Source: Candidatus Pacebacteria bacterium CG10_big_fil_rev_8_21_14_0_10_56_10 (lineage in GTDB: Bacteria; Patescibacteriota; Microgenomatia; UBA1400; PJMF01). From it: a stretch of DNA of 52,671 bases. Shown here one piece after another: positions 1,007 to 48,105 of this stretch (position 1 is its first letter; each line of letters begins with the position of its first letter). The stretch covers positions 1 through 52,671 of the forward strand of contig PFDK01000009.1 of assembly GCA_002772645.1 (NCBI GenBank), written 5' to 3'. Under the pieces are notes generated by a model. It made no database searches, was not told where the DNA came from, and saw nothing but the letters and a program-made list of their open reading frames with translations. The position numbers and the translations under genes are program-made.

Positions 1007-1077
1007 CCGGCTGGTGCGACGCGCGTTGCCGGCGAGCGACCGCGAATACAGTCGATAGAGTAGTAGTGATTAGTACC

Positions 1078-1236
1078 TGACTTTTCTTTCCAGTTGGCAT
1101 TATTTTACTTTCTTGGCACATCTAAAAAACTCACTTTAAGCGAGTGGGCCAAAACGGCCCACTTTCGGCCCACTAATGGCCCACGGAAAGCGTCGCCAAA
1201 AAAAACACCCCCAAAGAAATTACTCCCTAGGGGAAG
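1078..1236 (+). repeat. GGCCCAC-iteron MITE-like element, copy 1 (left part only; internal deletion near left end, right end replaced by TA cassette)
   Basis: CTTTCCAGTTGGCA..TTCTTGGCACATCTAAAAAACTCAC, hairpin GTGGGCC-AAAAC-GGCCCAC, 2 further GGCCCAC units, ..CAAAGAAATTACTCCCTAGGGGA; collinear with copies 5 and 7. Confidence 0.85.
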
Positions 1237-1256
1237 GTCAAACTGATCTCGTCGTG

Positions 1257-5139: not shown

Positions 5140-5300
5140 TAGGACAATTAAGACCAAAAGTTTAGTTACGAAAAAGTCTAGTTATGCTTTTTTTGGGGCC
5201 AGTCTTTAGTGTGCCGAAAGTGTGCCTTTAGTGTGCCTTTTTGGCCCACGATTTGAAAACCTGATTTTTAAGATATCGAATTTTTTGAGGACATTTTTTT
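5140..5300 (-). repeat. GGCCCAC-iteron element, copy 2 (diverged variant using GTGTGCC units)
   Basis: TTTAGTGTGCC GAAAGTGTGCC TTTAGTGTGCC TTTTTGGCCCAC ..TTTTTAAGATATCGAA keeps the 11-bp register and module order. Confidence 0.6.
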
Positions 5301-27068: not shown

Positions 27069-27199
27069 GTAGGGCCACCGGCTGCGAGTTAAAGATGGCA
27101 GAGGTTGCGTCTCAACGATCAATCAGATTACCTGCTGGCCCGGAGTTGAGCGCCGGATTGAGATTGAGGGGCGAGGAAAGTTAGGAGTGTTTTTTAAGC

Positions 27200-27409
27200 A
27201 AGCCCCTAGGGAATAATTTCTTTGGGGTGTTTTTTTGGCGCGCATTTTCCGTGGGCCATTAGTGGGCCATTAGTGGGCCATTAGTGGGCCGAAAGTGGGC
27301 CGAAAGTGGGCCGTTTTGGCCCACGCGCTTTAAGTGAGTTTTTTTTAGATATGCCAAGAAAAAATGCCAACTGGAAAGAAACGTAAAAAATCAAAAAAAC
27401 GCGAAAGTA
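27200..27409 (-). mobile_element. GGCCCAC-iteron MITE-like element, copy 3 (six 11-bp units; right TIR degenerate)
   Basis: GTGGGCC at 27251, 27262, 27273, 27284, 27295, 27306, then GTTTTGGCCCAC; flanking modules collinear with other copies; ends ..GCGAAAGTA. Confidence 0.9.
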
Positions 27410-27418
27410 TGGATGTGC

Positions 27419-27850
27419 TCACTCGACTGATCTTACCTCTAGCTCCCGACACTGTCGTAGCCGACGGTCACCGGTAACGAACTGGTCGGCTTTTACTTCG
27501 AGAGCAGAAGCAAGTTGCAGGCTATCCGGCACCCGAAAGCCGTACCGTCTCCGCAGCCGGGCGGCAGTGACGGCAATGGCCATGTCCATCCCAATAATTT
27601 TCAGGTTAGGGGTTTCAAGCAAGCGCCGGTACAGAGTGTCCACTTCCTCCTCTGTCATCTTGATCGACAGCAACTCGGTAACGGTCAGGGTGCTGGTGAC
27701 TGCGGTAACTTGGGTTGTCGTCAGCCGAGCAAAGATGTCCTGAGCAGTTTGGCCAAAGTCAGGGTGGTCTTGAAAAAAATAAATAAAGATGTTGGTGTCC
27801 AGGAAAAGCAAAGGCTTAGATTTCACGCCATTCGCTCCTGAGTTTGTCAA
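27419..27850 (-). CDS. vapC: PIN-domain toxin VapC
   Basis: LLFLDTNIFIYFF start region and conserved acidic residues. Confidence 0.8.
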   Translation of the reverse strand: MTNSGANGVKSKPLLFLDTNIFIYFFQDHPDFGQTAQDIFARLTTTQVTAVTSTLTVTELLSIKMTEEEVDTLYRRLLETPNLKIIGMDMAIAVTAARLRRRYGFRVPDSLQLASALEVKADQFVTGDRRLRQCRELEVRSVE

Positions 27851-28058
27851 ACTGATGGGCGGCGTCCGCTGGCCAGCTGTTTTTCATCAGGCCATAGCTG
27901 GAATCGAGCCAACTTTTTGGGGGAACTGTTAAGGCTATGGTTTTATCATCCAGCGCGTACACGCAGACTTGTCTGCCAGGTTTAAGTTCGGGGATTTTTT
28001 TCCGTACTTCCAAGGGAATGACAACTTGGTTTTTTGAACCAATAGTAACTTGTTTCAT
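27816..28058 (-). CDS. vapB: AbrB/MazE/SpoVT-family antitoxin VapB
   Basis: MKQVTIGSKNQVVIPLEVRKKI swapped-hairpin motif. Confidence 0.8.
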   Translation of the reverse strand: MKQVTIGSKNQVVIPLEVRKKIPELKPGRQVCVYALDDKTIALTVPPKSWLDSSYGLMKNSWPADAAHQFDKLRSEWREI

Positions 28059-28125
28059 AGTATGTCAAATATACCATAAAATGACATACCGATCAATCCG
28101 CTCAACTGGACTTCTTTTGGACTGC

Positions 28126-28157
28126 TTTTAGTAGATGTGTTGCCAAGTAAGAAAGGG
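28126..28157 (-). repeat. Possible degenerate relic of the iteron element (TTTAGATATGCCAAGAAA module)
   Basis: TTTTAGTAGATGTGTTGCCAAGTAAGAAAGGG vs element TTTTTTAGATATGCCAAGAAAAT; short, imperfect match. Confidence 0.3.
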
Positions 28158-28158
28158 C

Positions 28159-28689: not shown

Positions 28690-29688
28690 CTAAATCGCCA
28701 CCGGCACGCCTTTGATGCCGGGATGTGGATCGTAACCAACCAGCTCAAAGTCACTGTAGCGGTAGGCAAAAAAGTCATCGCGCCGTTTCATCTTGATTTG
28801 GGGCAGCGGCCGCAGTTGACGCTCCAGCATGGTCTCGACAGCCGGCAGCTGGTCAACGTAGATATGGGCGTCGGAGATAGTGTGGACGTACTCAACAGCC
28901 TTGGTACCGGTTGCCGCGGCGATCATCAGGGCCAAAGCCGCGTACTGGACCATGTTGGCCGGCACGCCGATCGGGGCGTCACCGGAGCGCTGGAACATGT
29001 GCAGCGTCAACTTACCATCGATCACTCGCAAGTGGACCCAGCCATGACAGGGACAGACCACTACTTTTTGGGTTTTGCCCCGGCCGCGGACGATGTACTG
29101 AGGGATCCAAGGCGTGATGAAGTGAGTTCTTAAGTGAGGCAGTTCGCGGATTTGTTCTATGATTTGCTGGAACTGGTTGTAGGTAGGTCCCTCGCTGGTG
29201 GGGAAGTCGTGAAAAGCTGCGCCGTACGAGCCGGGGCCGAGGTCACCGGTCTCCAGGCCGCGCTTGCTGCACTTGCGCTCGATTACCCACGGCGCCCACC
29301 AGCTGCAGCCAAACTCCTCGAGCTCCCGCTGAGTGCGGGCGCCGTTAACGAAGGCGGTCATCTCGGCAATGGCCTGCTGCCAGATAGTTACCGGCAAGCG
29401 CTGAGACACTTTGGGCGCCATATTGCGCTCGGTGATGACTGGAAACTCTTTGGTGAGATCGAAGCGCATCGGGCAGGTGCCGATCACGGTCAGGGCGTCG
29501 GTGCCCGACTGGCTCTTGGCGCGCACCCCGTTGTCGAGGATGTGCTGGAGAAGTTGCTGGTACTGGCTGCGAGCAGAACCACTCTGAACAGCACCACTTT
29601 GAGAGGGGTCACCCTGAGAGGTACCACTTTGAGAGGAGACGCGACCAGAGTTGGTCTCACTCTGAGATGAAGCGCGCCTCACAGCCAT
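28690..29688 (-). CDS. thyA: Thymidylate synthase ThyA-type with low-complexity SQSG-rich N-terminus (start 29688 or 29724)
   Basis: VVCPCHGW (catalytic Cys), FQRSGDAPIGVPANMVQYAAL, SDAHIYV. Confidence 0.8.
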   Translation of the reverse strand: MAVRRASSQSETNSGRVSSQSGTSQGDPSQSGAVQSGSARSQYQQLLQHILDNGVRAKSQSGTDALTVIGTCPMRFDLTKEFPVITERNMAPKVSQRLPVTIWQQAIAEMTAFVNGARTQRELEEFGCSWWAPWVIERKCSKRGLETGDLGPGSYGAAFHDFPTSEGPTYNQFQQIIEQIRELPHLRTHFITPWIPQYIVRGRGKTQKVVVCPCHGWVHLRVIDGKLTLHMFQRSGDAPIGVPANMVQYAALALMIAAATGTKAVEYVHTISDAHIYVDQLPAVETMLERQLRPLPQIKMKRRDDFFAYRYSDFELVGYDPHPGIKGVPVAI

Positions 29689-29711
29689 ACAGCTTCTTGT
29701 ACAATGTAGCC

Positions 29712-30152
29712 ATGGCACTGTCAATTCGAATTAAACTATTCGATGTTGATCTGCCCCTGCCCGCCTATCAGACTGCCGGCGCCGCCGGCTTTGATCTGTA
29801 CGCTCGCCGGCGGGTAACGATCGGACCGGGCCGGACCGCCAAAGTGCCGCTCAACGTAGCGCTAGAACTGCCACCTGGGTACTGGCTGCTGCTGGCGGCC
29901 CGCAGCTCGCTCCATACTAAGGGCCTGATGTTGGCCAACGGGGTAGGCGTGGGTGACGAGGACTTTCGCGGCGACAACGACGAGTACTTGGCAGTGCTGA
30001 CCAATCTGTTCGACCGGCCGGCCACTGTTGGGCGAGGCGAGCGGATCGTCCAGGGAATTATCCTGCCGCGCCAGCGTGCTAAACTGGAGCGCGTTGAGCA
30101 GTTAGGCTTGACCGACCGCGGCGGGCTAGGCAGTACTGGCCGACGGGCCTAG
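29712..30152 (+). CDS. dut: dUTP diphosphatase
   Basis: GAAGFDLYA, GVGVGDEDFRG and RGGLGSTG motifs. Confidence 0.85.
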   Translation: MALSIRIKLFDVDLPLPAYQTAGAAGFDLYARRRVTIGPGRTAKVPLNVALELPPGYWLLLAARSSLHTKGLMLANGVGVGDEDFRGDNDEYLAVLTNLFDRPATVGRGERIVQGIILPRQRAKLERVEQLGLTDRGGLGSTGRRA

Positions 30153-30174: not shown

Positions 30175-30732
30175 ATGACCACTTTTATCATCGCCGCCCT
30201 GACTGCCGACGGCTCCATTGCTAAAGACAGTCACCAGCCGTCCACCCGCTGGACCAGCGCCGAGGATGGTCAGTTCTTCGCCCGCCAGACAAAACAGAGC
30301 GGGGTGATGGTGATGGGCCGGACCACTTTTACCACTATCGGCCGGACCTTGCCTGGCCGGACAACTATTGTTTACACTTCGCGGCCTGCGCAGTTCAGCC
30401 ACCGGTTCAGCCAAGCCCAAGCATTTGGACCGGCCCAGCCAAACTTGGTGCCGGGCGGACTGCTGACCACCAAGCTGGGGCCGCGGCGACTGATCACGGC
30501 GCTGGCGGCCAAGGGCCTAGACAGCCTGGCGATCTGCGGCGGCACCAGTATCTACACTCAGTTTCTAGAGGCGGGGGTGGTTGACAAACTGTACCTGACC
30601 ATCGAGCCGGTAGTGTTTGGCGATGGCTTGCGTTTGTTTGGCCAGTTGGGCCGTCAGTACAGCTTGCGCCTCGACGAACTGCGCCGCTTGTCAGCCCAGA
30701 CGGTAGTGCTGGAGTACTCGGTGGAGAAGTGA
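30175..30732 (+). CDS. Dihydrofolate reductase-family (RibD C-terminal domain) protein
   Basis: IIAALTADGSIA .. VMVMGRTTF .. ICGGTSIY pattern. Confidence 0.7.
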   Translation: MTTFIIAALTADGSIAKDSHQPSTRWTSAEDGQFFARQTKQSGVMVMGRTTFTTIGRTLPGRTTIVYTSRPAQFSHRFSQAQAFGPAQPNLVPGGLLTTKLGPRRLITALAAKGLDSLAICGGTSIYTQFLEAGVVDKLYLTIEPVVFGDGLRLFGQLGRQYSLRLDELRRLSAQTVVLEYSVEK

Positions 30733-30757
30733 CTGCTCTACCCACCAGCCGTTGTTT

Positions 30758-30885
30758 TAGTAACCACTTAGTTTGCTGACTAGCCCCAGCGAATAATTTC
30801 TTTAAGTGAGTTTTTTTAATATGCCAAGAAAATATTGCCAATGCCCCAATGCCAACTGAAAAAAACATCTTTAGTGACCACACTA
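30758..30885 (-). repeat. GGCCCAC-iteron element, copy 4 (iteron core deleted; shares a subfamily-specific insert with copy 6; interrupted after GTGACCACAC)
   Basis: GTAACCACTTAGTTTGCTGACTAGCCCC..AATAATTTCTTTAAGTGAG..ATATGCCAAGAAAATATTGCCAATGCCCCAATGCCAACTGAAAAAAACATCTTTAGTGACCACAC. Confidence 0.8.
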
Positions 30886-30935
30886 AGTTATTTATATTTT
30901 GACTTGTAGTATGTTGTGTATTAATATTAAAGCAT

Positions 30936-31223
30936 ATGATTAGAACGTCTCTGTTTCTACCAGAGACTCTACACCAGCGGCTTATTTTACTAGCAAGGCG
31001 AGAAGGTATGAACGTCTCTGAGCTTGCCCGCGATCTTCTAGATCGGGCTTTAGCCAAGCGGGAAAGGGCCAAAATCAAACACACTTATCAGGTTCTCAAA
31101 GAGCTTGATGGTATCGGCGGTGAGGATGTGACTGACGCTTCCACCACCATTGACGAGGTACTCTACGGCGAAGAAGGAGAGTGGAAAGTGAGCAATGCAG
31201 ACGATACAGGTGCTAATCGATAG
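30936..31223 (+). CDS. Ribbon-helix-helix antitoxin (VapB-type)
   Basis: SLFLPETLHQRLILLARREGMNVSELARDLLDRAL. Confidence 0.7.
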   Translation: MIRTSLFLPETLHQRLILLARREGMNVSELARDLLDRALAKRERAKIKHTYQVLKELDGIGGEDVTDASTTIDEVLYGEEGEWKVSNADDTGANR

Positions 31224-31608
31224 TGACGCCCTGGTGGCTCGCTTCTACCCCAAAGACCCGCACCACCAGCGGGTGCTGGAGTTATTCTCTCAACTGGAAG
31301 AAGAGGAGCAAACCCTAGTCACCACCAGCCTAGTGGTGGTTGAGGTCGCCACTGTGTTGAGCCACCGCAGTGGCCAAGATATAGTGCGAGCCTTTCTTGA
31401 CAGAATCGACGAAGCTGAACTGTCCATTATTCACATCGATGTGGCTTTCCAGCAGCAAGCGCTTCAGATATTCCGCGAGCAAGCCGCCCGAGGCACCAGT
31501 GTCACCGACTGCGCCAATGTGGCGATGATGCGCCGCTTTGCTATCCCTCAAATCTTCAGCTTTGACAAGGTCTATCCAAAGCACTTTGAGTTACAGGCGA
31601 TCACCTAG
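31195..31608 (+). CDS. vapC: PIN-domain toxin VapC
   Basis: VLIDSDALVA start, TSLVVVEV and SVTDCANVAMM motifs. Confidence 0.75.
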   Translation: MQTIQVLIDSDALVARFYPKDPHHQRVLELFSQLEEEEQTLVTTSLVVVEVATVLSHRSGQDIVRAFLDRIDEAELSIIHIDVAFQQQALQIFREQAARGTSVTDCANVAMMRRFAIPQIFSFDKVYPKHFELQAIT

Positions 31609-31687
31609 AACCCTTGGCGGTTGACGTTGGCATAATCAATATAAACTTTTGTTTACCCTGAAAGAAAGTTTCTAATTCTTGTGACCG

Positions 31688-32227
31688 ATGCCACTAATAG
31701 CACAGCTTTTCTATCTTTTTCTGCCCGCTTACGCCGCCAACAGCGCGCCGGTGATCGGCAAGTGCTTAGGGTGGCTGACCGGCTTGAACGCGCCGCTCGA
31801 TCAGGGTAAAACTTGGCATGGCCGAGAAGTGCTGGGGAAACACAAAACTGTCCGCGGGCTGGTGCTGGCCATCGCGGCGGCCAGTATTGTGGCTTGCGCC
31901 CAAGTCGTGCTGTCCTCCAGCATTCCCCAGTGGCTGCCGTTGGTCCGCTACGACGTCTTTTTTTGGCCGACGGGCGTGCTGATGGGATTGGGAGCAATAC
32001 TAGGCGACGCGGCCGAGAGCGGCATCAAGCGATTACTGGGCATTCCGGCTGGTCAGCTATGGTGGCCGTTTGATTACTTTGACTACACCTTGGGGGCTTT
32101 ACTATTGTCGGGACTGGCCTGGCGACTGCCAGTCACCTTGATGGCGATGGCAATCGTCCTGAACGTTGTCTTGACTACTGCCACCAACGCGGCCGCCAAA
32201 CGGCTCGATCTCAAAGACCAGCTGTAG
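31688..32227 (+). CDS. carS: CDP-archaeol synthase (CarS, DUF46)-like membrane protein
   Basis: LFLPAYAANSAPVIG..PLDQGKTWHGREVLGKHKTVRG and LGDAAESGIKRLLG are collinear with archaeal CarS. Confidence 0.6.
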   Translation: MPLIAQLFYLFLPAYAANSAPVIGKCLGWLTGLNAPLDQGKTWHGREVLGKHKTVRGLVLAIAAASIVACAQVVLSSSIPQWLPLVRYDVFFWPTGVLMGLGAILGDAAESGIKRLLGIPAGQLWWPFDYFDYTLGALLLSGLAWRLPVTLMAMAIVLNVVLTTATNAAAKRLDLKDQL

Positions 32228-32289
32228 TGGGGCTGTAGTCAGGTTGCGACCATCATGGCGGACACCGTGGTGGTCAGGAGCGCTATCAG

Positions 32290-32994
32290 TTAGTCGCCGA
32301 GCTTGGCGTCTGGAAACCGGTCCACAAAAATCTGCCACACCTGTTTTTCTACCACCTCGATCGGTTGGGTGCCGTCAATGAGGTGCCAGCGACCAGTGCT
32401 GTCTCGGTCGGCCATCTCCAAGTAACCCTGGCGCACCTGGCGCTGAACCCCGATACCTTCCTGCTCAATACGGTCCAGATCACCCTGCCGTTGTAGTCGC
32501 TCCGCGCCCACCTCGGCCGGAACATCAAGCAGGAGCGTCAAGCTGGGCAAAGTCTGCCGAGTAGAAAAATCGTTGAGCTGTTCAATCCGATCCACCCCTA
32601 CTTGCCGCATCACGCCTTGATAAACGGTGCTGCTGTCGCGGGTTCGGTCCATGATCACCCAGTGGCCACCTTCCAGGCTGGGTAGTACCAGTTCGGCGTA
32701 CAGCTGAGCCCGGGCCGCCTGGAATAACAGCACTTCGGTCCGAATGTCCATGCGCGCGTTGTCAGGTGTCAGCACTACTTGGCGAACCTGCTCGGAGATG
32801 GGCACGCCGCCCGGCTCGCGAACGTAAGTGACTTGGTGGCCCTGGTCGCGAAGTTTATCGGTCAAGAGCTGGCACTGGGTAGTTTTGCCCACCCCTTCCA
32901 TCCCCTCGAAGCTGATCAGCCGAGGGTGGATGGTGGCGGCAGAGGTAAATGTTGAAGTTGGGGTGGTGAAAGCGGTGGGGGCAGTTACAGTCAC
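32290..32994 (-). CDS. tmk: Thymidylate kinase
   Basis: ISFEGMEGVGKTTQ P-loop; GTG start. Confidence 0.85.
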   Translation of the reverse strand: MTVTAPTAFTTPTSTFTSAATIHPRLISFEGMEGVGKTTQCQLLTDKLRDQGHQVTYVREPGGVPISEQVRQVVLTPDNARMDIRTEVLLFQAARAQLYAELVLPSLEGGHWVIMDRTRDSSTVYQGVMRQVGVDRIEQLNDFSTRQTLPSLTLLLDVPAEVGAERLQRQGDLDRIEQEGIGVQRQVRQGYLEMADRDSTGRWHLIDGTQPIEVVEKQVWQIFVDRFPDAKLGD

Positions 32995-33049
32995 AACGGT
33001 TATAGTAGCACGATCCCGAACCGACAGACGACGTTAATTAGCTGTCGAT

Positions 33050-33289
33050 CCCGACTTTCGCGCTTTTTGATTTTTTACGTTTCTTTCCAGTTGGCAATAT
33101 TTTCTTGGCATATCTAAAAAACTCACTTTAAGCGAGTGGGCCAAAACGGCCCACTAATGGCCCACTAAAGGCACACTAATGGCCCACTAATGACACACTG
33201 AAAATGCGCGCCAAAAAAACACCCCCAAAGAAATTATTCCCTAGGGGACAGTCGGCAAATTAAGTGTTTACTAATTGGCGAAAGTCGGG
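33050..33289 (+). mobile_element. GGCCCAC-iteron MITE-like element, copy 5 (complete, 240 bp)
   Basis: Left TIR CCCGACTTTCGC 33050-33061, right TIR GCGAAAGTCGGG 33278-33289; all internal modules present. Confidence 0.9.
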
Positions 33290-33413
33290 AGGCGAGCTGA
33301 GATGGTCGGCCCGCTGCCGCTAGCTGGCTGACACCTCTGGACGCCAAACTTGTTACAATGGAGCTCTGGCGCTTTCCCTAACTAACCCTAACTAAGTCGC
33401 CGAGAAACTTCCC

Positions 33414-34127
33414 ATGTTGGACACCTCACTGCGCTCCGCCAAAGACTCCGCTTTACAGTCGGTGGCGGCCCGAATGGAGAGCGTGTCGCCTGGCGCGGTC
33501 AGCTGGGCCGGGTTGACGGCCGGGCTGGCGACGGCCGGTTTGGTAGTGGCGCAGCTGTATTGGTGGGGCTTGTTGGCTTGGTGGCTTAATCGCGTACTGG
33601 ACGGCCTGGACGGCACACTGGCCCGGGTCCATGGCCGCCAGTCGGACTGGGGTGGCTACCTGGACATGGTGCTGGACCTGTCCGTTTACGCGGTAGTGTT
33701 GGTCAGCTTCTTGTGGGGAGGGTCAAAGCTGGTGTTGGGTTTGGGCGCGATAGTGCTAGCCTTGTTCTACGTCAACATTGGCCAGCTGTTTTTGAGCAGT
33801 GCCATCTTGGAAAAAATAAAGCACCAGCCAGGCGCCGCAGCGCGCCGCCGCCAAGTCGGTACCAACGGCCGTTTGACCACTCTGGAACTGCCCACCACCC
33901 TAGTTGAAGGAGCAGAGACAGTGGTGCTGTACAGCTTGCTGTTTGTGTTTGTGGGACAACTGCCGGTGGTGCTGGGCTTGATGATACTGGCGATGGCTAT
34001 CACCATCGGCCAGCGGTTTAGCTGGGCCTGGCGGACGTTGGCGGGCGGCACTGATCGAACAGGCACCGATGTCAGTGGTTCTGCCAGCACCGCTACTGGA
34101 AAGACTGGCCCCACCAGGACACTTTAA
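33414..34127 (+). CDS. CDP-alcohol phosphatidyltransferase
   Basis: LDGLDGTLARVHGRQSDWGGYLDMVLD fits D-x2-DG-x2-AR-x8-G-x3-D-x3-D. Confidence 0.8.
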   Translation: MLDTSLRSAKDSALQSVAARMESVSPGAVSWAGLTAGLATAGLVVAQLYWWGLLAWWLNRVLDGLDGTLARVHGRQSDWGGYLDMVLDLSVYAVVLVSFLWGGSKLVLGLGAIVLALFYVNIGQLFLSSAILEKIKHQPGAAARRRQVGTNGRLTTLELPTTLVEGAETVVLYSLLFVFVGQLPVVLGLMILAMAITIGQRFSWAWRTLAGGTDRTGTDVSGSASTATGKTGPTRTL

Positions 34128-36262
34128 TGAAAAAACCACAGTACCACACCGCGATCATTGGCGGCGGCGCGGCCGGCCTGACGGTGGCGGTCGGGCTGGC
34201 CCGGCTGGGCAAAAAGGTGGCGCTGATCGAGCAAGACAAGCTAGGCGGGGAGTGCACTCACTCCGGTTGTGTGCCTAGCAAGGCGCTGCTCCACGCGGTC
34301 AGGACACTGCCCGACAAGCATGTTTGGCCTCACGTTCGCCGAGTAGTCGCCGAAATCTGGCACGAAGAACAGGAAATGATCGCTGGGCTGGAGACAGTTG
34401 ATGTCATCAAGGCCCGGGCCAGCTTCGTCGACGAGTACACCCTGAAACTTGAGCGAGGCACCGGTCGAACCAGCCGCACCGGTCGGGACGGCCGGACTGC
34501 TGACAAGATCACCGCTGACAACATCACTGCTGGCCGGATCGTCATCGCCGCCGGATCGTCGCCGCGAACCATCGGCATCCCCGGCTTGCCGCCGGCCAAG
34601 GACTTCACCAACCAGAACATTTTCTCGCTGCGCAAACATCCCCGGCGTTTGGCCATACTAGGGGTAGGACCGATCTCCATCGAGTTAGCCATGGCGTTCG
34701 CGGCCATGGGCACCCGGGTGGAAGTGCTGTATCGCGGCGAGGGTATTCTAAGCAAAGAGGACCCCGAAATATCGCAAGCACTGCAGCGGCGGCTGGAACA
34801 GCTGGGCGTTGTTTTTCACTGGCACACTGCTGACCTGCGCTACAGTCGCGGCCAGCTCCAGTTTACCGCCGACGGCCAACAGCGGCAGCTGACTGGGCTA
34901 ACGGGAGTGCTGCAAGCCATCGGCCGCCAACCTAACGTAACCGGCTTGGGCCTCGATGAGGCGTGCGTGGAGTACTCTGGGCGCGGCTTGGTGGTCAACA
35001 GCGCTTTTCGGACTAACGTTGGCCACATCTTCGCCATTGGCGACATCCTCGACGATGATAAGTTTACCCACCTGGCCAATGCCCAGGGCCGAGTGGTGGT
35101 CAAGTCGATCGCTTTTCCCTGGCTGCCGGCCGGACGCCTGCCGCAGGTGCCGCGGGTAACTTACACCTCTCCTGAGGTAGCCGGCATTGGCCTGACCATG
35201 GACGAGCTGGACAAGCTTGGTCCCAATGTGGTTATAAAGCTGACGGTGCCGTTTGCCGGACTGGACCGCGGCAAGACCGACCAGACGCCGGCCGATCAGC
35301 GCGTCACTGTCTACGCCCAGCGCCTGACGGGCCGGATCCTACGGGCCAGTGTTTACGCCGACCACGCCGGCGAGATGCTGCCCTACTTTATCGTGGCTGT
35401 TAACCGCCGGTTGTCGCTGTGGAAGCTCTACCCGCTGATCTTTCCGTACCCCACGCTGGCCCAGGCTTTTGCCAAGATCGCCGACCAGTTTGTTGTCGAG
35501 ACGCTAACTAATCTCCGAGCCGAGGTGGCGGCGTTTTTCGGTCACACGGCCGGCCGGCTGTGGCGCCGCTTCGGTTTCAGGTTGCTGGGGGTGGCGCTGT
35601 GGCTGGTAACGGTCTGGGCGGTCCGCCGCTGGGCGTACGCTCAAGGCTACACCTTCCAGCAGCTGCTGGCCGAGGCGGCCGAGCTGATGACCGCTACCAG
35701 CTTGGGACCGCTGGTCTATCTGGGCGCCTACTTCCTGCGGCCGGTGTTCCTGCTGCCGGCTACCTTGCTGACCGTCTTGGCTGGCTTGACGTACGGTTTA
35801 GGCTGGGGCTTCGTACTGGCGTTGATCGGCAGTACCTTATCGACTATTTTTCCCTATGCTTTGGGCCGTTGGTTTGCTCAGGCCACCGACCAGGACGAGC
35901 GGGCCCGGTCCCGGCTCAAAGCCTACACTGATCGATTAAAAAGAGAGCCCTTTACCGGCGTTTTGCTGCTGCGGCTGCTGTTCATGCCCTACGACTTGGT
36001 CAGTGTTCTGGCCGGCAATGTTCGGGTTAATTTTTGGGCTTTCTTCGGAGCAACCGCTCTGGGCAGTTCGATCGGCACCCTGACACTGGTCAGCTTTGGC
36101 ACCTCGGTGGAGGGGGGCTTGAGCAGTTTGGTTCGGGGGGAGAGCAGTCTTAGTCCGGTTGGAGTGGCCGCATCACTCGGTTTGGCGATGTTGAGCTTGA
36201 TAATCTCCCGCTACGCTCCCAAGTTGAGGCTGTTTAAGCGTCGGACCTCGCCGGCAGCCTGA
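34127..36262 (+). CDS. Fusion: FAD-dependent pyridine nucleotide-disulfide oxidoreductase plus TVP38/TMEM64 (DedA-like) membrane domain
   Basis: IIGGGAAGLT, redox CTHSGC, second Rossmann ILGVGPISIE; C-terminal LLPATLLTVLAGLTYGLGWGF. Confidence 0.75.
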   Translation: MKKPQYHTAIIGGGAAGLTVAVGLARLGKKVALIEQDKLGGECTHSGCVPSKALLHAVRTLPDKHVWPHVRRVVAEIWHEEQEMIAGLETVDVIKARASFVDEYTLKLERGTGRTSRTGRDGRTADKITADNITAGRIVIAAGSSPRTIGIPGLPPAKDFTNQNIFSLRKHPRRLAILGVGPISIELAMAFAAMGTRVEVLYRGEGILSKEDPEISQALQRRLEQLGVVFHWHTADLRYSRGQLQFTADGQQRQLTGLTGVLQAIGRQPNVTGLGLDEACVEYSGRGLVVNSAFRTNVGHIFAIGDILDDDKFTHLANAQGRVVVKSIAFPWLPAGRLPQVPRVTYTSPEVAGIGLTMDELDKLGPNVVIKLTVPFAGLDRGKTDQTPADQRVTVYAQRLTGRILRASVYADHAGEMLPYFIVAVNRRLSLWKLYPLIFPYPTLAQAFAKIADQFVVETLTNLRAEVAAFFGHTAGRLWRRFGFRLLGVALWLVTVWAVRRWAYAQGYTFQQLLAEAAELMTATSLGPLVYLGAYFLRPVFLLPATLLTVLAGLTYGLGWGFVLALIGSTLSTIFPYALGRWFAQATDQDERARSRLKAYTDRLKREPFTGVLLLRLLFMPYDLVSVLAGNVRVNFWAFFGATALGSSIGTLTLVSFGTSVEGGLSSLVRGESSLSPVGVAASLGLAMLSLIISRYAPKLRLFKRRTSPAA

Positions 36263-36297
36263 CCGGCAGCCAGCCTGGCTTGGGGCTGGACTTTGAA

Positions 36298-36584
36298 CCC
36301 GACTTTCGCGAATTAGTAACCACTTAATTTGCTGACTAGCCCCTAGGGAGTAATTTCTTTTGGGGGTGTTTTTTTGGCGCGCATTTTCAGTGTGTCATTA
36401 GTGGGCCATTAGTGGGCCAAAAGTGGGCCGTTTTGGCCCACTCGCTAAAGTGAGTTTTTTAGATATGCTAAGAAAATATCGCCAATGCCCCAATGCCAAC
36501 TAAAAAAACATCTTTAGTGACCATACTTGGTTTGCCCTTAGCCTGGAAAGAAACACAAAAATCAAAAAGCGCGAAAGTCAGGTG
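36298..36584 (-). mobile_element. GGCCCAC-iteron MITE-like element, copy 6 (complete, 287 bp; extra ~50-bp internal segment)
   Basis: CCCGACTTTCGCG at 36298-36310 and GCGAAAGTCAGG at 36573-36584; its terminal TCA supplies the stop codon of the adjacent minus-strand gene. Confidence 0.9.
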
Positions 36585-37192
36585 CCCGGCAGCCAGCCCG
36601 GCTTGGCCCTCAGCTTAGCCGCCCACTTGACCAGTCGGGTCGTCAGCCTGGTTTGGAGCTGGACTTTAAACAGCGAAGTTATCAGCAGCGCGTCCAGGCC
36701 GTGCTCGAACACGGTGAACTGGCGGCCAAAGTGGTTCGGGTCCCAGTAGCTGACCGGACTGGCGAACCTCCAGCTCCAGTTGAGCGGCCACAGCAGCAAC
36801 GGCCCGTCGTTGTGGTGGGTAACGATGTCAACGCCAGTGTGGACCAGCGAGCCGATCACTACCCACTTGAGAAGCCGGCGCGCTTTAGCGGGCAGAGGCA
36901 GCAGGTAAACGGCCGTCAGCTGCAGAGCCAAACTGAGCGGCGAGTGGAACAGGTTGTGACCGGTAATGAACAGCGGGTTGGTAAAAAAGGCATCGAAAAA
37001 CAAATACTGGAACGTGTCCGCTAGACTGCCCTGACCGGTTAGCCAAAACCAGCCAAAGGTGGCGCCGCTCAAGACCACCAGGGGAATGTCAGGCAGTACC
37101 GCCCCGATCAGGAAGCCGCGGCCGGCCAACCCGGCCAGGCCCCAGTCCCGGGCCAGCTTGGTTTGGATCAAGGCGTGGGAGTAAGTAATCAC
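36578..37192 (-). CDS. His-rich polytopic membrane protein (membrane-bound metal-dependent hydrolase-like)
   Basis: Hydrophobic helices; GHNLFHS and VHTGVDIVTHHNDGP. Confidence 0.35.
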   Translation of the reverse strand: MITYSHALIQTKLARDWGLAGLAGRGFLIGAVLPDIPLVVLSGATFGWFWLTGQGSLADTFQYLFFDAFFTNPLFITGHNLFHSPLSLALQLTAVYLLPLPAKARRLLKWVVIGSLVHTGVDIVTHHNDGPLLLWPLNWSWRFASPVSYWDPNHFGRQFTVFEHGLDALLITSLFKVQLQTRLTTRLVKWAAKLRAKPGWLPGT

Positions 37193-42062: not shown

Positions 42063-42286
42063 CCATCCCCAACTCTACTCGGGCAACCTTGAATCTAGCT
42101 TGCGCGCGCTTTGCCTAAGGGCTCGCCGTCTGCCCACCACCAGCCCACCACCGGCTTGCCACCTGCCCACCACCAGCCCGCCGCCGCTCGGCCATCTGCT
42201 ATACTGCTGCTACCTTAAGCTTAGTTGCTTTTTACTCGATACTTAACAGCGGCCTGACGGGGTCGGTCTGTCGGCTTGAGGTTGGT

Positions 42287-43870: not shown

Positions 43871-44503
43871 ATGATAAAAACTCCGCACATGAGCTCTCCC
43901 ATTTTTTCGCACTTTCGCCGCCGCGATCGGCTAATTTACCAGGTCCTGACCGCGATGGATGACTTCAACCCGCTCGCGCCAACACACCCCCCAGAGGAGT
44001 ACTTTAGTGAATTGAGTAGCTCGATTGTTGGCCAGCAGCTGTCGACTACCGCTGCCCATACAATTTACACCCGGCTGGTTAAGTTACTGGCAGGCGATGT
44101 GACTGCCGCCCGGCTGCTAGCTGCCGACGACCAAGCCATGCGCGACTGCGGTCTGTCGTGGGCCAAGGTTCGCTCCGTCAAGGACTTGGCGGCCAAGGTG
44201 GCCAACCACCAGCTCAAGCTTAACCGGCTGACCACCATGAGCGATGCTCAAGTCATCGCCGAGCTGACCAAAGTCAAAGGTATCGGCCAGTGGACAGCCG
44301 AGATGTTCCTGATATTCGCGCTGGGGAGGGAAGACATTTTTTCTCACGGCGATCTGGGACTGCGGCGGGCTATGGAGGGCTTGTACGGGTTGGGGCAGCT
44401 GCCGTCGCCTGCCCAAGCCGACCAGATCTCAACCAAGTGGCGGCCGTACCGCAGCTACGGCTGCCTGGCGCTGTGGCACACCCTGGACAACGCGCCGATT
44501 TAA
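43871..44503 (+). CDS. alkA: HhH-GPD DNA glycosylase (AlkA-type 3-methyladenine glycosylase II)
   Basis: GIGQWTAEMFLIFALGREDIFSHGDLGLRRAM; C-terminal WRPYRSYGCLALW. Confidence 0.75.
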   Translation: MIKTPHMSSPIFSHFRRRDRLIYQVLTAMDDFNPLAPTHPPEEYFSELSSSIVGQQLSTTAAHTIYTRLVKLLAGDVTAARLLAADDQAMRDCGLSWAKVRSVKDLAAKVANHQLKLNRLTTMSDAQVIAELTKVKGIGQWTAEMFLIFALGREDIFSHGDLGLRRAMEGLYGLGQLPSPAQADQISTKWRPYRSYGCLALWHTLDNAPI

Positions 44504-44506
44504 AGT

Positions 44507-44735
44507 CTGACTTTCGCGCTTTTTGATTTTTTTCGTTTCTTTCCAGTTGGCATTTTTTCTTGGCATATCTAAAAAAAACTTAAAGCGCGTGGGCCAAAAC
44601 GGCCCACTTTTGACACACTAACGGCCCACTAATGGCCCACGGAAAATGTGCGCCAAAAAAACACCCCAAAGAAATTATTCCCTAGGGGAGGGGACAGTCA
44701 GCAAACTAAGTGGTTGCTAATTCGCAAAAGTCTGG
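44507..44735 (+). mobile_element. GGCCCAC-iteron MITE-like element, copy 7 (complete, 229 bp)
   Basis: CTGACTTTCGCG .. GCAAAAGTCTGG termini; all modules present; begins 3 bp after the alkA-like stop. Confidence 0.9.
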
Positions 44736-44830
44736 CGACCAGATCTCAACCAAGTGGCGGCCGTACCGCAGCTACGGCTGCCTGACTCACGTTCAGGTCC
44801 TGCCGGTGAAGTGCGGTATGATAGCCGCAG

Positions 44831-47941: not shown

Positions 47942-48077
47942 TTGACTAGCCCCTAGGGAATAATTTCTTTTGGGGGTGTTTTTTTGACGCGCATTTTCAG
48001 TGTGCCATTAGTGTGCCGAAAGTGGGCCGTTTTGGCCCACTCGCTTAAAGTGAATTTTTTAGATATGCCAAGAAAAT
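47942..48077 (-). repeat. GGCCCAC-iteron element, copy 8 (both termini truncated)
   Basis: TTGACTAGCCCCTAGGGAATAATTTC..CAGTGTGCC ATTAGTGTGCC GAAAGTGGGCC GTTTTGGCCCAC..AGATATGCCAAGAAAAT. Confidence 0.85.
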
Positions 48078-48105
48078 GAAGTCACAGCTAGGGTAAAATA
48101 CAACC

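Follow-up and report, generated by a model that had tools for sequence, protein, structure and literature searches.

Mobile insertion cassettes (MICs) are transposase-less elements that are bounded by terminal inverted repeats (TIRs), carry passenger genes and are mobilized in trans; the definition of these elements, and of miniature inverted-repeat transposable elements (MITEs), is given in PMC4133298, and the qnrS2 MIC serves as an example for comparison (PMC5444012). The locus considered here lies in a 52,671-nucleotide stretch of DNA (contig PFDK01000009.1; 52.7 kb, hereafter the window) from Candidatus Pacebacteria bacterium CG10_big_fil_rev_8_21_14_0_10_56_10, in which a type II toxin-antitoxin (TA) cassette begins exactly where a copy of a MITE-like repeat, copy 4, ends. 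The original prediction had placed this cassette inside a split repeat copy, a filled site with copy 6 as its intact, empty counterpart, and had proposed that the whole has the layout of an MIC, with MITE ends carrying a passenger TA module. The explanation that we favor, with slightly better than even confidence, is that a solitary, horizontally acquired VapBC-like cassette sits at, or within, a repeat copy that is dead.

Copy 4 and the toxin-antitoxin cassette

The window contains ~8 copies of a non-coding 230-285-bp repeat, the individual copies measuring ~130-285 bp, and at least six further copies are found on metagenome contigs of the same population. The features that bear on the junction between repeat and cassette are the following.

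30757-30884, plus strand: copy 4, a decayed copy of the long subfamily
30885-31644, plus strand: TA cassette, an insert or adjacent block of 760 bp, GC 0.495
30899-30927, plus strand: predicted sigma-70-like promoter, TTGACT-17 nt-TAATAT, from a promoter scan
30936-31223, plus strand: ribbon-helix-helix (RHH; CopG/Arc/MetJ-type) antitoxin of 95 aa, from Pfam RHH_5 and alignment with homologues
31195-31608, plus strand: VapC-type PIN toxin of 137 aa, from Pfam PIN PF01850
31645-31668, plus strand: putative right-hand remnant of copy 4, ACTTTTGTTTACCCTGAAAGAAAG, with marginal statistics and no right TIR after it
36298-36582, plus strand: copy 6, an intact, uninterrupted long variant with both TIRs
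36298-36310 (CCCGACTTTCGCG) and 36570-36582 (CGCGAAAGTCAGG): TIRs of copy 6

The right arms of copies 4 and 6 are both longer by ~45-57 nt, which read GCCAATGCCCCAATGCCAACT(G)AAAAAAACATCTTTAGTGACCAYAC..., and alignment confirms that this subfamily segment, already recognized in the original prediction, is missing from copies 1, 3, 5, and 7. Indeed, every string and coordinate quoted in that prediction is present in the sequence as given, though positions 36517-36554, which it labeled as the left TIR of copy 6, are internal to the element, whose TIRs are those listed above. Copy 6 is unbroken at GTGACCATAC/TTGG and serves as an "empty-site" paralogue. A scan of 241 million metagenome records with the left-junction 20-mer AAAAACATCTTTAGTGACCA returned five more distinct long-variant copies (L008, L009, which is the same locus as L013, L011, L012, and L015) together with four unrelated chance matches. 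All five run on as GTGACCACACTTGG(C/T)TT(G/A)CCCT(T/C)A(G/A)CCTGGAAAGAAAC... to the right TIR and are free of cargo; like copy 6, they are uninterrupted counterparts of copy 4.

The six intact long-variant copies were used to make an nhmmer profile (a model of ~308 positions), and its match to copy 4 falls into two blocks: model positions 24-84 align at 30757-30816 (E 3.7e-7), and model positions 156-240 at 30801-30885 (E 7e-23). It follows that copy 4 is without the left TIR and without the entire tandem-repeat core. The core, an array of 11-bp units, has been taken out by an internal deletion of ~125 nt at ~30802/30803. The homology ends abruptly at 30884, after GTGACCACACT, the profile match stopping at model position 240 of ~308. 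Copy 4 is a long-subfamily copy that ends exactly where the TA block begins, and with its core deleted and its TIRs missing it is dead as an element.

The cassette that starts at the next base sits between a DHFR-like and a CarS-like gene. Both of the predicted open reading frames (ORFs) are real and intact and the block measures the expected ~760 bp, but the long leader attributed to it dwindles on inspection to 51 nt of non-coding sequence, with a tail of 36 nt after the PIN stop codon. The predicted promoter ends 8 nt from the antitoxin ATG, so that the mRNA of the cassette is probably leaderless or nearly so. The regions upstream of the homologous cassettes (loci L016-L019) have the same layout (TTGACA-17-TAATAT, 6 nt, ATG), and homology to other cassettes starts at the -35 box, 14 nt inside the left junction. 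The antitoxin matches Pfam RHH_5 over residues 3-43 (E 1.9e-4; 21.5 bits, under the 26-bit cut-off), and it can be aligned from end to end with the 90-aa antitoxins encoded at homologous loci, with which it has a conserved ITDASTTIDEVLYGE motif in common. Its gene overlaps that of the toxin by 29 nt. The toxin matches PF01850 above the cut-off (E 2.1e-10), and its acidic residues D9, E50, D105, and D124 do not vary among 14 aligned sequences, the toxin and 13 homologues; its best solved relative is VapC26 (5x3t, E 1e-5), and its match to TIGR00028 is weak, well below the NCBIfam cut-off. To judge from these sequence features, the pair is an intact VapBC-like type II TA operon with its own predicted promoter.

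By analogy with what is known of VapBC, the RHH dimer would repress the promoter, which would overlap its operator, and the C-terminal tail of the antitoxin, which carries the conserved motif, would block the active site of the PIN toxin. Once the labile antitoxin was lost, the toxin, a Mg-dependent RNase, would be free to cut its target, a tRNA or rRNA, and growth would be arrested. The module may have the addiction or defence roles that are usual for TA modules.

The block is compositionally foreign and looks horizontally acquired. The RHH gene has a GC content of 0.49 and a third-position GC content (GC3) of 0.46, and the PIN gene has values of 0.54 and 0.66, compared with 0.585-0.62 (GC) and 0.68-0.81 (GC3) for eleven neighboring housekeeping genes. 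The nearest PIN protein among 5.8 billion proteins is 64% identical (locus L028), and its gene is followed by one for an IS5-like transposase, with no repeat sequence nearby. The PIN homologues at 57-61% identity lie in a conserved mobile-element block that consists of DUF2958, a 132-aa ORF, a TrwB-like ATPase, antitoxin, PIN, a 225-aa ORF, a helix-turn-helix protein, and a large serine recombinase.

The segment beyond the cassette

Whether copy 4 resumes on the far side of the cassette decides between a split copy and a truncated one. In intact copies the sequence that follows the break reads ACTTGG(C/T)TT(G/A)CCCT(T/C)A(G/A)CCTGGAAAGAAAC, and the 24 nt after the cassette align with it as ACTT(+1 nt)GTTT(A/G)CCCT(-6/7 nt)GAAAGAAA(G/C), with ~20/23 matches and two gaps. 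The original prediction had counted about 20 of 25 matches with one gap; the match is there, but a single gap does not produce it, one of 1 nt and another of 6-7 nt being needed. The segment contains an exact 9-mer, GTTTACCCT, in common with the metagenomic copy L012, and an exact 8-mer, GAAAGAAA. The missing 6-7 nt are flanked by short CCT repeats, and a slippage deletion would be a natural way to lose them. The match picks up the element at exactly the position reached by the left part, and its orientation and order are colinear with that part.

The pairwise statistics lend this alignment some weight. A Smith-Waterman comparison with copy 6 gives a score of 20, against 12.3±2.1 for shuffled sequence, and the score is reached in 7/2000 shuffles; among 2288 real windows the distal match ranks ~40th, with roughly 14 of the windows being true copies. 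With a semi-global alignment of a 32-nt query, taking the best of five variants, the observed score is reached by 23/3000 dinucleotide shuffles, by 14/5008 real 79-nt windows (0.28%), and by 5/490 of those that are AT-rich (1.0%), results that are flattered since the length of the query was picked after the end of the match had been seen.

Several observations weigh against a split copy. When the full 57-nt right arm is anchored at its prefix and left free at its 3' end, 27/400 shuffles do as well (p ~0.07), and an nhmmer profile of the right arm gives no match at the distal segment even at E<=1000. In an nhmmer junction scan, in which the left part was joined to each position from 30885 to 32999 (2115 candidates), the best candidate junction is at 31649, with 86.8 bits compared with a median of 77.2, and seven other unrelated junctions equal it (8/2115, or ~0.26 expected per 79 nt). 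Past GAAAGAAAG no counterpart of the final ~28 nt of the element can be recognized, and the right TIR is missing. The trinucleotide ACT flanks the block at both ends (30882-30884 and 31645-31647), and at 3 nt this repeat is too short for a target-site duplication and is not significant alone. In the collections searched there is no empty-site allele of the locus, all contigs being 100% identical. Finally, partial copies are common in the window without any split (copies 1, 2, 3, and 8), so that a truncated copy adjoining a TA cassette needs no special explanation.

Several of these observations also speak for an alternative that we consider appreciably less probable, though it deserves serious weight, namely that copy 4 was simply truncated and happens to adjoin a TA cassette of independent origin, and that the 24-nt likeness is a chance occurrence in an AT-rich spacer. 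The right part of copy 4 would then have been lost, perhaps in the rearrangement that brought the cassette. Of the eight copies in the window, five are incomplete or carry replaced ends and yet are not split, equally good junctions arise by chance at the rate given above, the right-arm profile is silent at the segment, and the anchored test and the lack of a right TIR point the same way; moreover, the other TA pair of the window (27419-28058) also only abuts a repeat, copy 3, whose right TIR is intact. Against it stand the pairwise tests, with p ~0.003-0.01, and the fact that the match starts at the very element position at which the left part ends, in the right orientation and order.

Across the alignment tests the p values for the distal match range from 0.0035 to 0.07, so that the outcome of the shuffled controls is marginal and depends on the test. 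It is because these tests disagree that the splitting of copy 4 by the TA cassette is only plausible: we put it slightly above an even chance from the sequence comparisons. Of the filled site that had been predicted, the left half stands on the second nhmmer block and the right half is marginal.

Origin and arrival of the cassette

On the explanation that we favor, a self-contained VapBC-type operon, comprising promoter, RHH antitoxin, PIN RNase toxin, and 36-nt tail in 760 bp, would have come from a gene pool borne by mobile elements and landed at, and most likely within, an old copy of the MITE-like repeat that had decayed already or did so afterwards. The likely break point falls between ...GTGACCACACT and TTGG..., which would leave ~128 nt of repeat upstream and ~24 nt downstream. 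That copy 4 continues in the 24 nt downstream of the cassette is our inference from the alignment, and we likewise infer the direction of events, with the TA cassette entering the repeat.

Two modes of arrival can be envisaged. The minimal unit may have been inserted illegitimately by way of ACT microhomology, or a larger integrated element may have decayed to its addictive module. The latter is a sub-variant of the favored explanation, distinct from it in the route of arrival alone: the TA pair would be the last remnant of a larger integrative element (with the TrwB-like ATPase and the large serine recombinase) that integrated into the repeat copy and was then deleted. The conserved mobile-element context of the homologues, the heavy decay of the repeat copy, and the apparently streamlined genome are in keeping with it. 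The cassette is trimmed, however, to 14 nt from the -35 box and 36 nt from the stop codon, and neither ORF calls nor blastn against the homologous loci reveal any pseudogene fragments of the neighboring mobile-element genes, the similarity being confined to the TA genes; this tight trimming and the missing fragments make the decay of a larger element less likely. In addition, the best nucleotide identity of the cassette to any homologous locus is only 64-70%. We regard this mode of arrival as unlikely. More improbable still is the notion that the 760-bp promoter-RHH-PIN unit is a discrete self-inserting cassette, with a 3-bp ACT duplication and a specific site in the long-variant repeat, which, if true, would mean that gene cassettes use the repeat family as a landing pad in this streamlined Patescibacteria genome. 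The only match between the ends of the 760-bp insert in a search for terminal inverted repeats is 7 nt long, AT-rich, and not significant.

The proposal that the whole block 30757-31668 is an MIC, with repeat ends mobilized in trans carrying the TA pair, is largely refuted. It draws on the repeat-derived sequence to the left of the cassette, and possibly to its right as well, and on the family having 13-bp TIRs and, at the metagenomic copy L015, TAGTT flanks, so that the family may once have been transposable. A search of 30700-31700 finds no TIR, even allowing 2 mismatches, so neither TIR encloses the cargo, and copy 4, with its core deleted, is dead, which means that the present unit is not a mobile cassette. 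No second cargo-bearing copy appears among the long-variant copies from the metagenome records, the five others being distinct and uninterrupted, and, as far as the collections allow, the idea of MITE ends carrying a passenger module is not supported. The exact PIN protein is found at this locus only. Identity to its closest homologues does not exceed 64%, and their surroundings are unrelated and contain no repeat sequence. At five further loci from the same population, the repeat copies have housekeeping genes, and no TA pairs, beside them. The repeat is the target or the neighbor of the TA cassette, not its vehicle.

The database comparisons also characterize the host, which is a Patescibacteria lineage without close relatives in the databases searched. 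Exact matches to the PIN, CarS, and DHFR proteins come from four or five samples, and in every case the contig is 100% identical to the window; several of these contigs end inside repeat copies. The population is represented in JGI 3300004210 and the Ga0210057 sample, SRR6240789, and ERZ27293412-14. The 90%-identity clusters of the three proteins have one member each. Identity to the top match is 55% for DHFR and 40% for the CarS-like protein, the latter match being from DPANN archaea. In a relative with 51% DHFR identity, DHFR, dUTPase, Tmk, VTT, RecR, and S30AE are clustered and there is no TA pair. Two inspected relatives (~50-55% DHFR identity) keep the thymidylate cluster and have no CarS, TA pair, or repeat; since CarS and the repeat are missing there too, they are not true empty sites. 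A scan of GTDB-representative genomes with the CarS-like protein for an orthologous empty site gave only an irrelevant match in Acidobacteriaceae.

The repeat family, neighboring genes, and known systems

The repeat family is more unusual than the TA cassette in being dense and in having mosaic ends, variable 11-bp tandem repeats, and odd long flanking duplications. The remaining copies in the window are these.

1056-1240, minus strand: copy 1, partial
5188-5270: copy 2, a fragment
27194-27414: copy 3, with its right TIR intact at 27400-27412
33048-33296, minus strand: copy 5, with the 13-bp TIR pair present
44506-44735, minus strand: copy 7, with the 13-bp TIR pair present
47943-48080: copy 8, truncated
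27250-27324, 33128-33200, 36389-36441, 44590-44640, 47999-48040, and 1124-1190: 11-bp arrays

The 13-bp TIRs, CCYGACTTTCGCG, are paired in copies 5, 6, and 7 and in L015, and copy 4 has none. Full copies contain 2-6 tandem 11-bp units (AGTGGGCCATT / AGTGTGCCGAA variants), the number differing between copies, and these units are spaced one helical turn apart in an iteron-like array. The array ends in full copies in a hairpin, GTGGGCC-GTTTT-GGCCCAC, which is followed by the AT-rich right arm. An Rfam scan of the window, including the 11-bp array, gave no match, a tRNA scan of the window found none, and viral contigs scanned for the hairpin core of the repeat gave no match. A clean 5-bp flanking repeat, TAGTT, is seen at L015 only. 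No cognate transposase was found for the repeat, with no genome-wide transposase search having been made.

Two copies are accompanied by longer, non-contiguous duplications. Beside the left TIR of copy 7, an exact 49 bp of an HhH-GPD glycosylase gene is duplicated (44419-44467 and 44736-44784), the glycosylase retaining its genuine C-terminus (...WRPYRSYGCLALWH...), and beside the left TIR of copy 6, ~30 nt of a YdjM-like gene is duplicated at ~87% identity (36270-36300 and 36643-36672). In both copies the right TIR abuts the 3' end of the convergent gene that supplied the duplicated stretch, and since the original stretch is 38-62 nt away from the right TIR, the arrangement is not a simple target-site duplication. 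The ends of the family are mosaic as well: copy 3 (27194-27235) and L008 (oriented, ~2330-2370) have an alternative, TIR-less left end, GGAA.GTTAGGAGT.TTTTT..GCAA, that replaces CCCGACTTTCGCGAATTAGTAACCAC.... The extra right-arm segment of the long variant (TTTAGTGACCACACTTGGCTTGCC) resembles a duplicate of the standard left-end module (TTAGTAACCACTTAATTTGC). The idea that this segment is the footprint of an excised TA cassette was rejected, since the segment appears to have been duplicated within the element from its left-end module (TTAGTAACCAC... compared with TTTAGTGACCAC...) and since at least six copies that carry it have TIRs, which copy 4 does not.

The second type II TA pair of the window is encoded on the minus strand, with an AbrB/MazE-fold antitoxin at 27816-28058 and a PIN toxin at 27419-27850. 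It is also a low-GC outlier, and its 3' end lies 6 nt from the right TIR of copy 3. Both TA pairs of the window touch a repeat copy, and none of the six copies in other loci touches one. A candidate repeat remnant beyond this pair (28125-28158) has a vague likeness to the AGATGTGCCAAGAAA module; it is unreported by nhmmer and was set aside.

Among the genes near the cassette, the CarS-like gene (CDP-archaeol-synthase family; 31688-32227) has its nearest relatives, at 38-40% identity, in sequences annotated as DPANN archaea (Nanoarchaeota, Woesearchaeota), and a CDP-alcohol phosphatidyltransferase gene lies nearby (33414-34127). The closest DHFR-bearing relatives are without the CarS-like gene at the corresponding position, and the two genes may reflect inter-domain transfer of lipid-synthesis genes. 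The gene at 34127-36262 encodes a 711-aa fusion of an oxidoreductase (Pyr_redox_2 and dimerization domains) to a C-terminal VTT/DedA membrane domain, and the relative L026 has a stand-alone VTT-domain gene at the corresponding position. The longest ORF of the thymidylate synthase gene (28690-29724, minus strand) has an N-terminal extension of ~50 aa that is rich in SQSGT/SQSE, with the Pfam domain beginning at residue 54; its true start is uncertain, JGI having called a 332-aa product. Farther along, 42120-42185 holds four tandem, GC-rich 11-nt units (GCCCACCACCA-like) whose sequence is unrelated to the 11-bp units of the repeat.

The TA cassette adds one solitary VapBC-like module to the many that are known, and it suggests that accessory DNA in a reduced Patescibacteria genome gathers at the same permissive intergenic spots as repeats do. 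The locus would matter more if the repeat were a reusable integration site or a vehicle; the evidence argues against a vehicle and cannot establish a role as an integration site.

In comparison with known systems, the cassette is closest to VapBC, for example, VapBC26 of M. tuberculosis. It resembles these pairs in its antitoxin-first, overlapping two-gene operon, in a PIN domain with four conserved acidic residues, in an antitoxin whose N-terminus probably has the RHH DNA-binding fold and whose C-terminal tail is conserved, in the predicted promoter directly upstream, and in being a compositionally foreign module with homologues on mobile elements. It departs from characterized VapC proteins in that the similarity is weak, as the E value to VapC26 and the sub-threshold NCBIfam match indicate, and from the usual VapBC operon in its gene overlap, which is 29 nt here compared with 4-8 nt. 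The arrangement at copy 4 differs from an MIC in that both TIRs are missing and there is no flanking duplication, second copy, or cognate transposase found, though like an MIC it has passenger genes beside, and possibly between, sequences derived from a TIR-bearing repeat family. It differs from a nested insertion into a MITE or other small non-autonomous repeat in having no convincing target-site duplication, ACT being the only candidate, and in that the insert is not a recognizable transposable element; it is like such an insertion in the contrast between an interrupted copy and its uninterrupted paralogues, in the homology that stops at a defined base, and in a possible colinear resumption after the insert, which is statistically insecure here. 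The repeat family itself is like the MITEs in being small, multicopy, and non-coding, and in carrying 13-bp TIRs.

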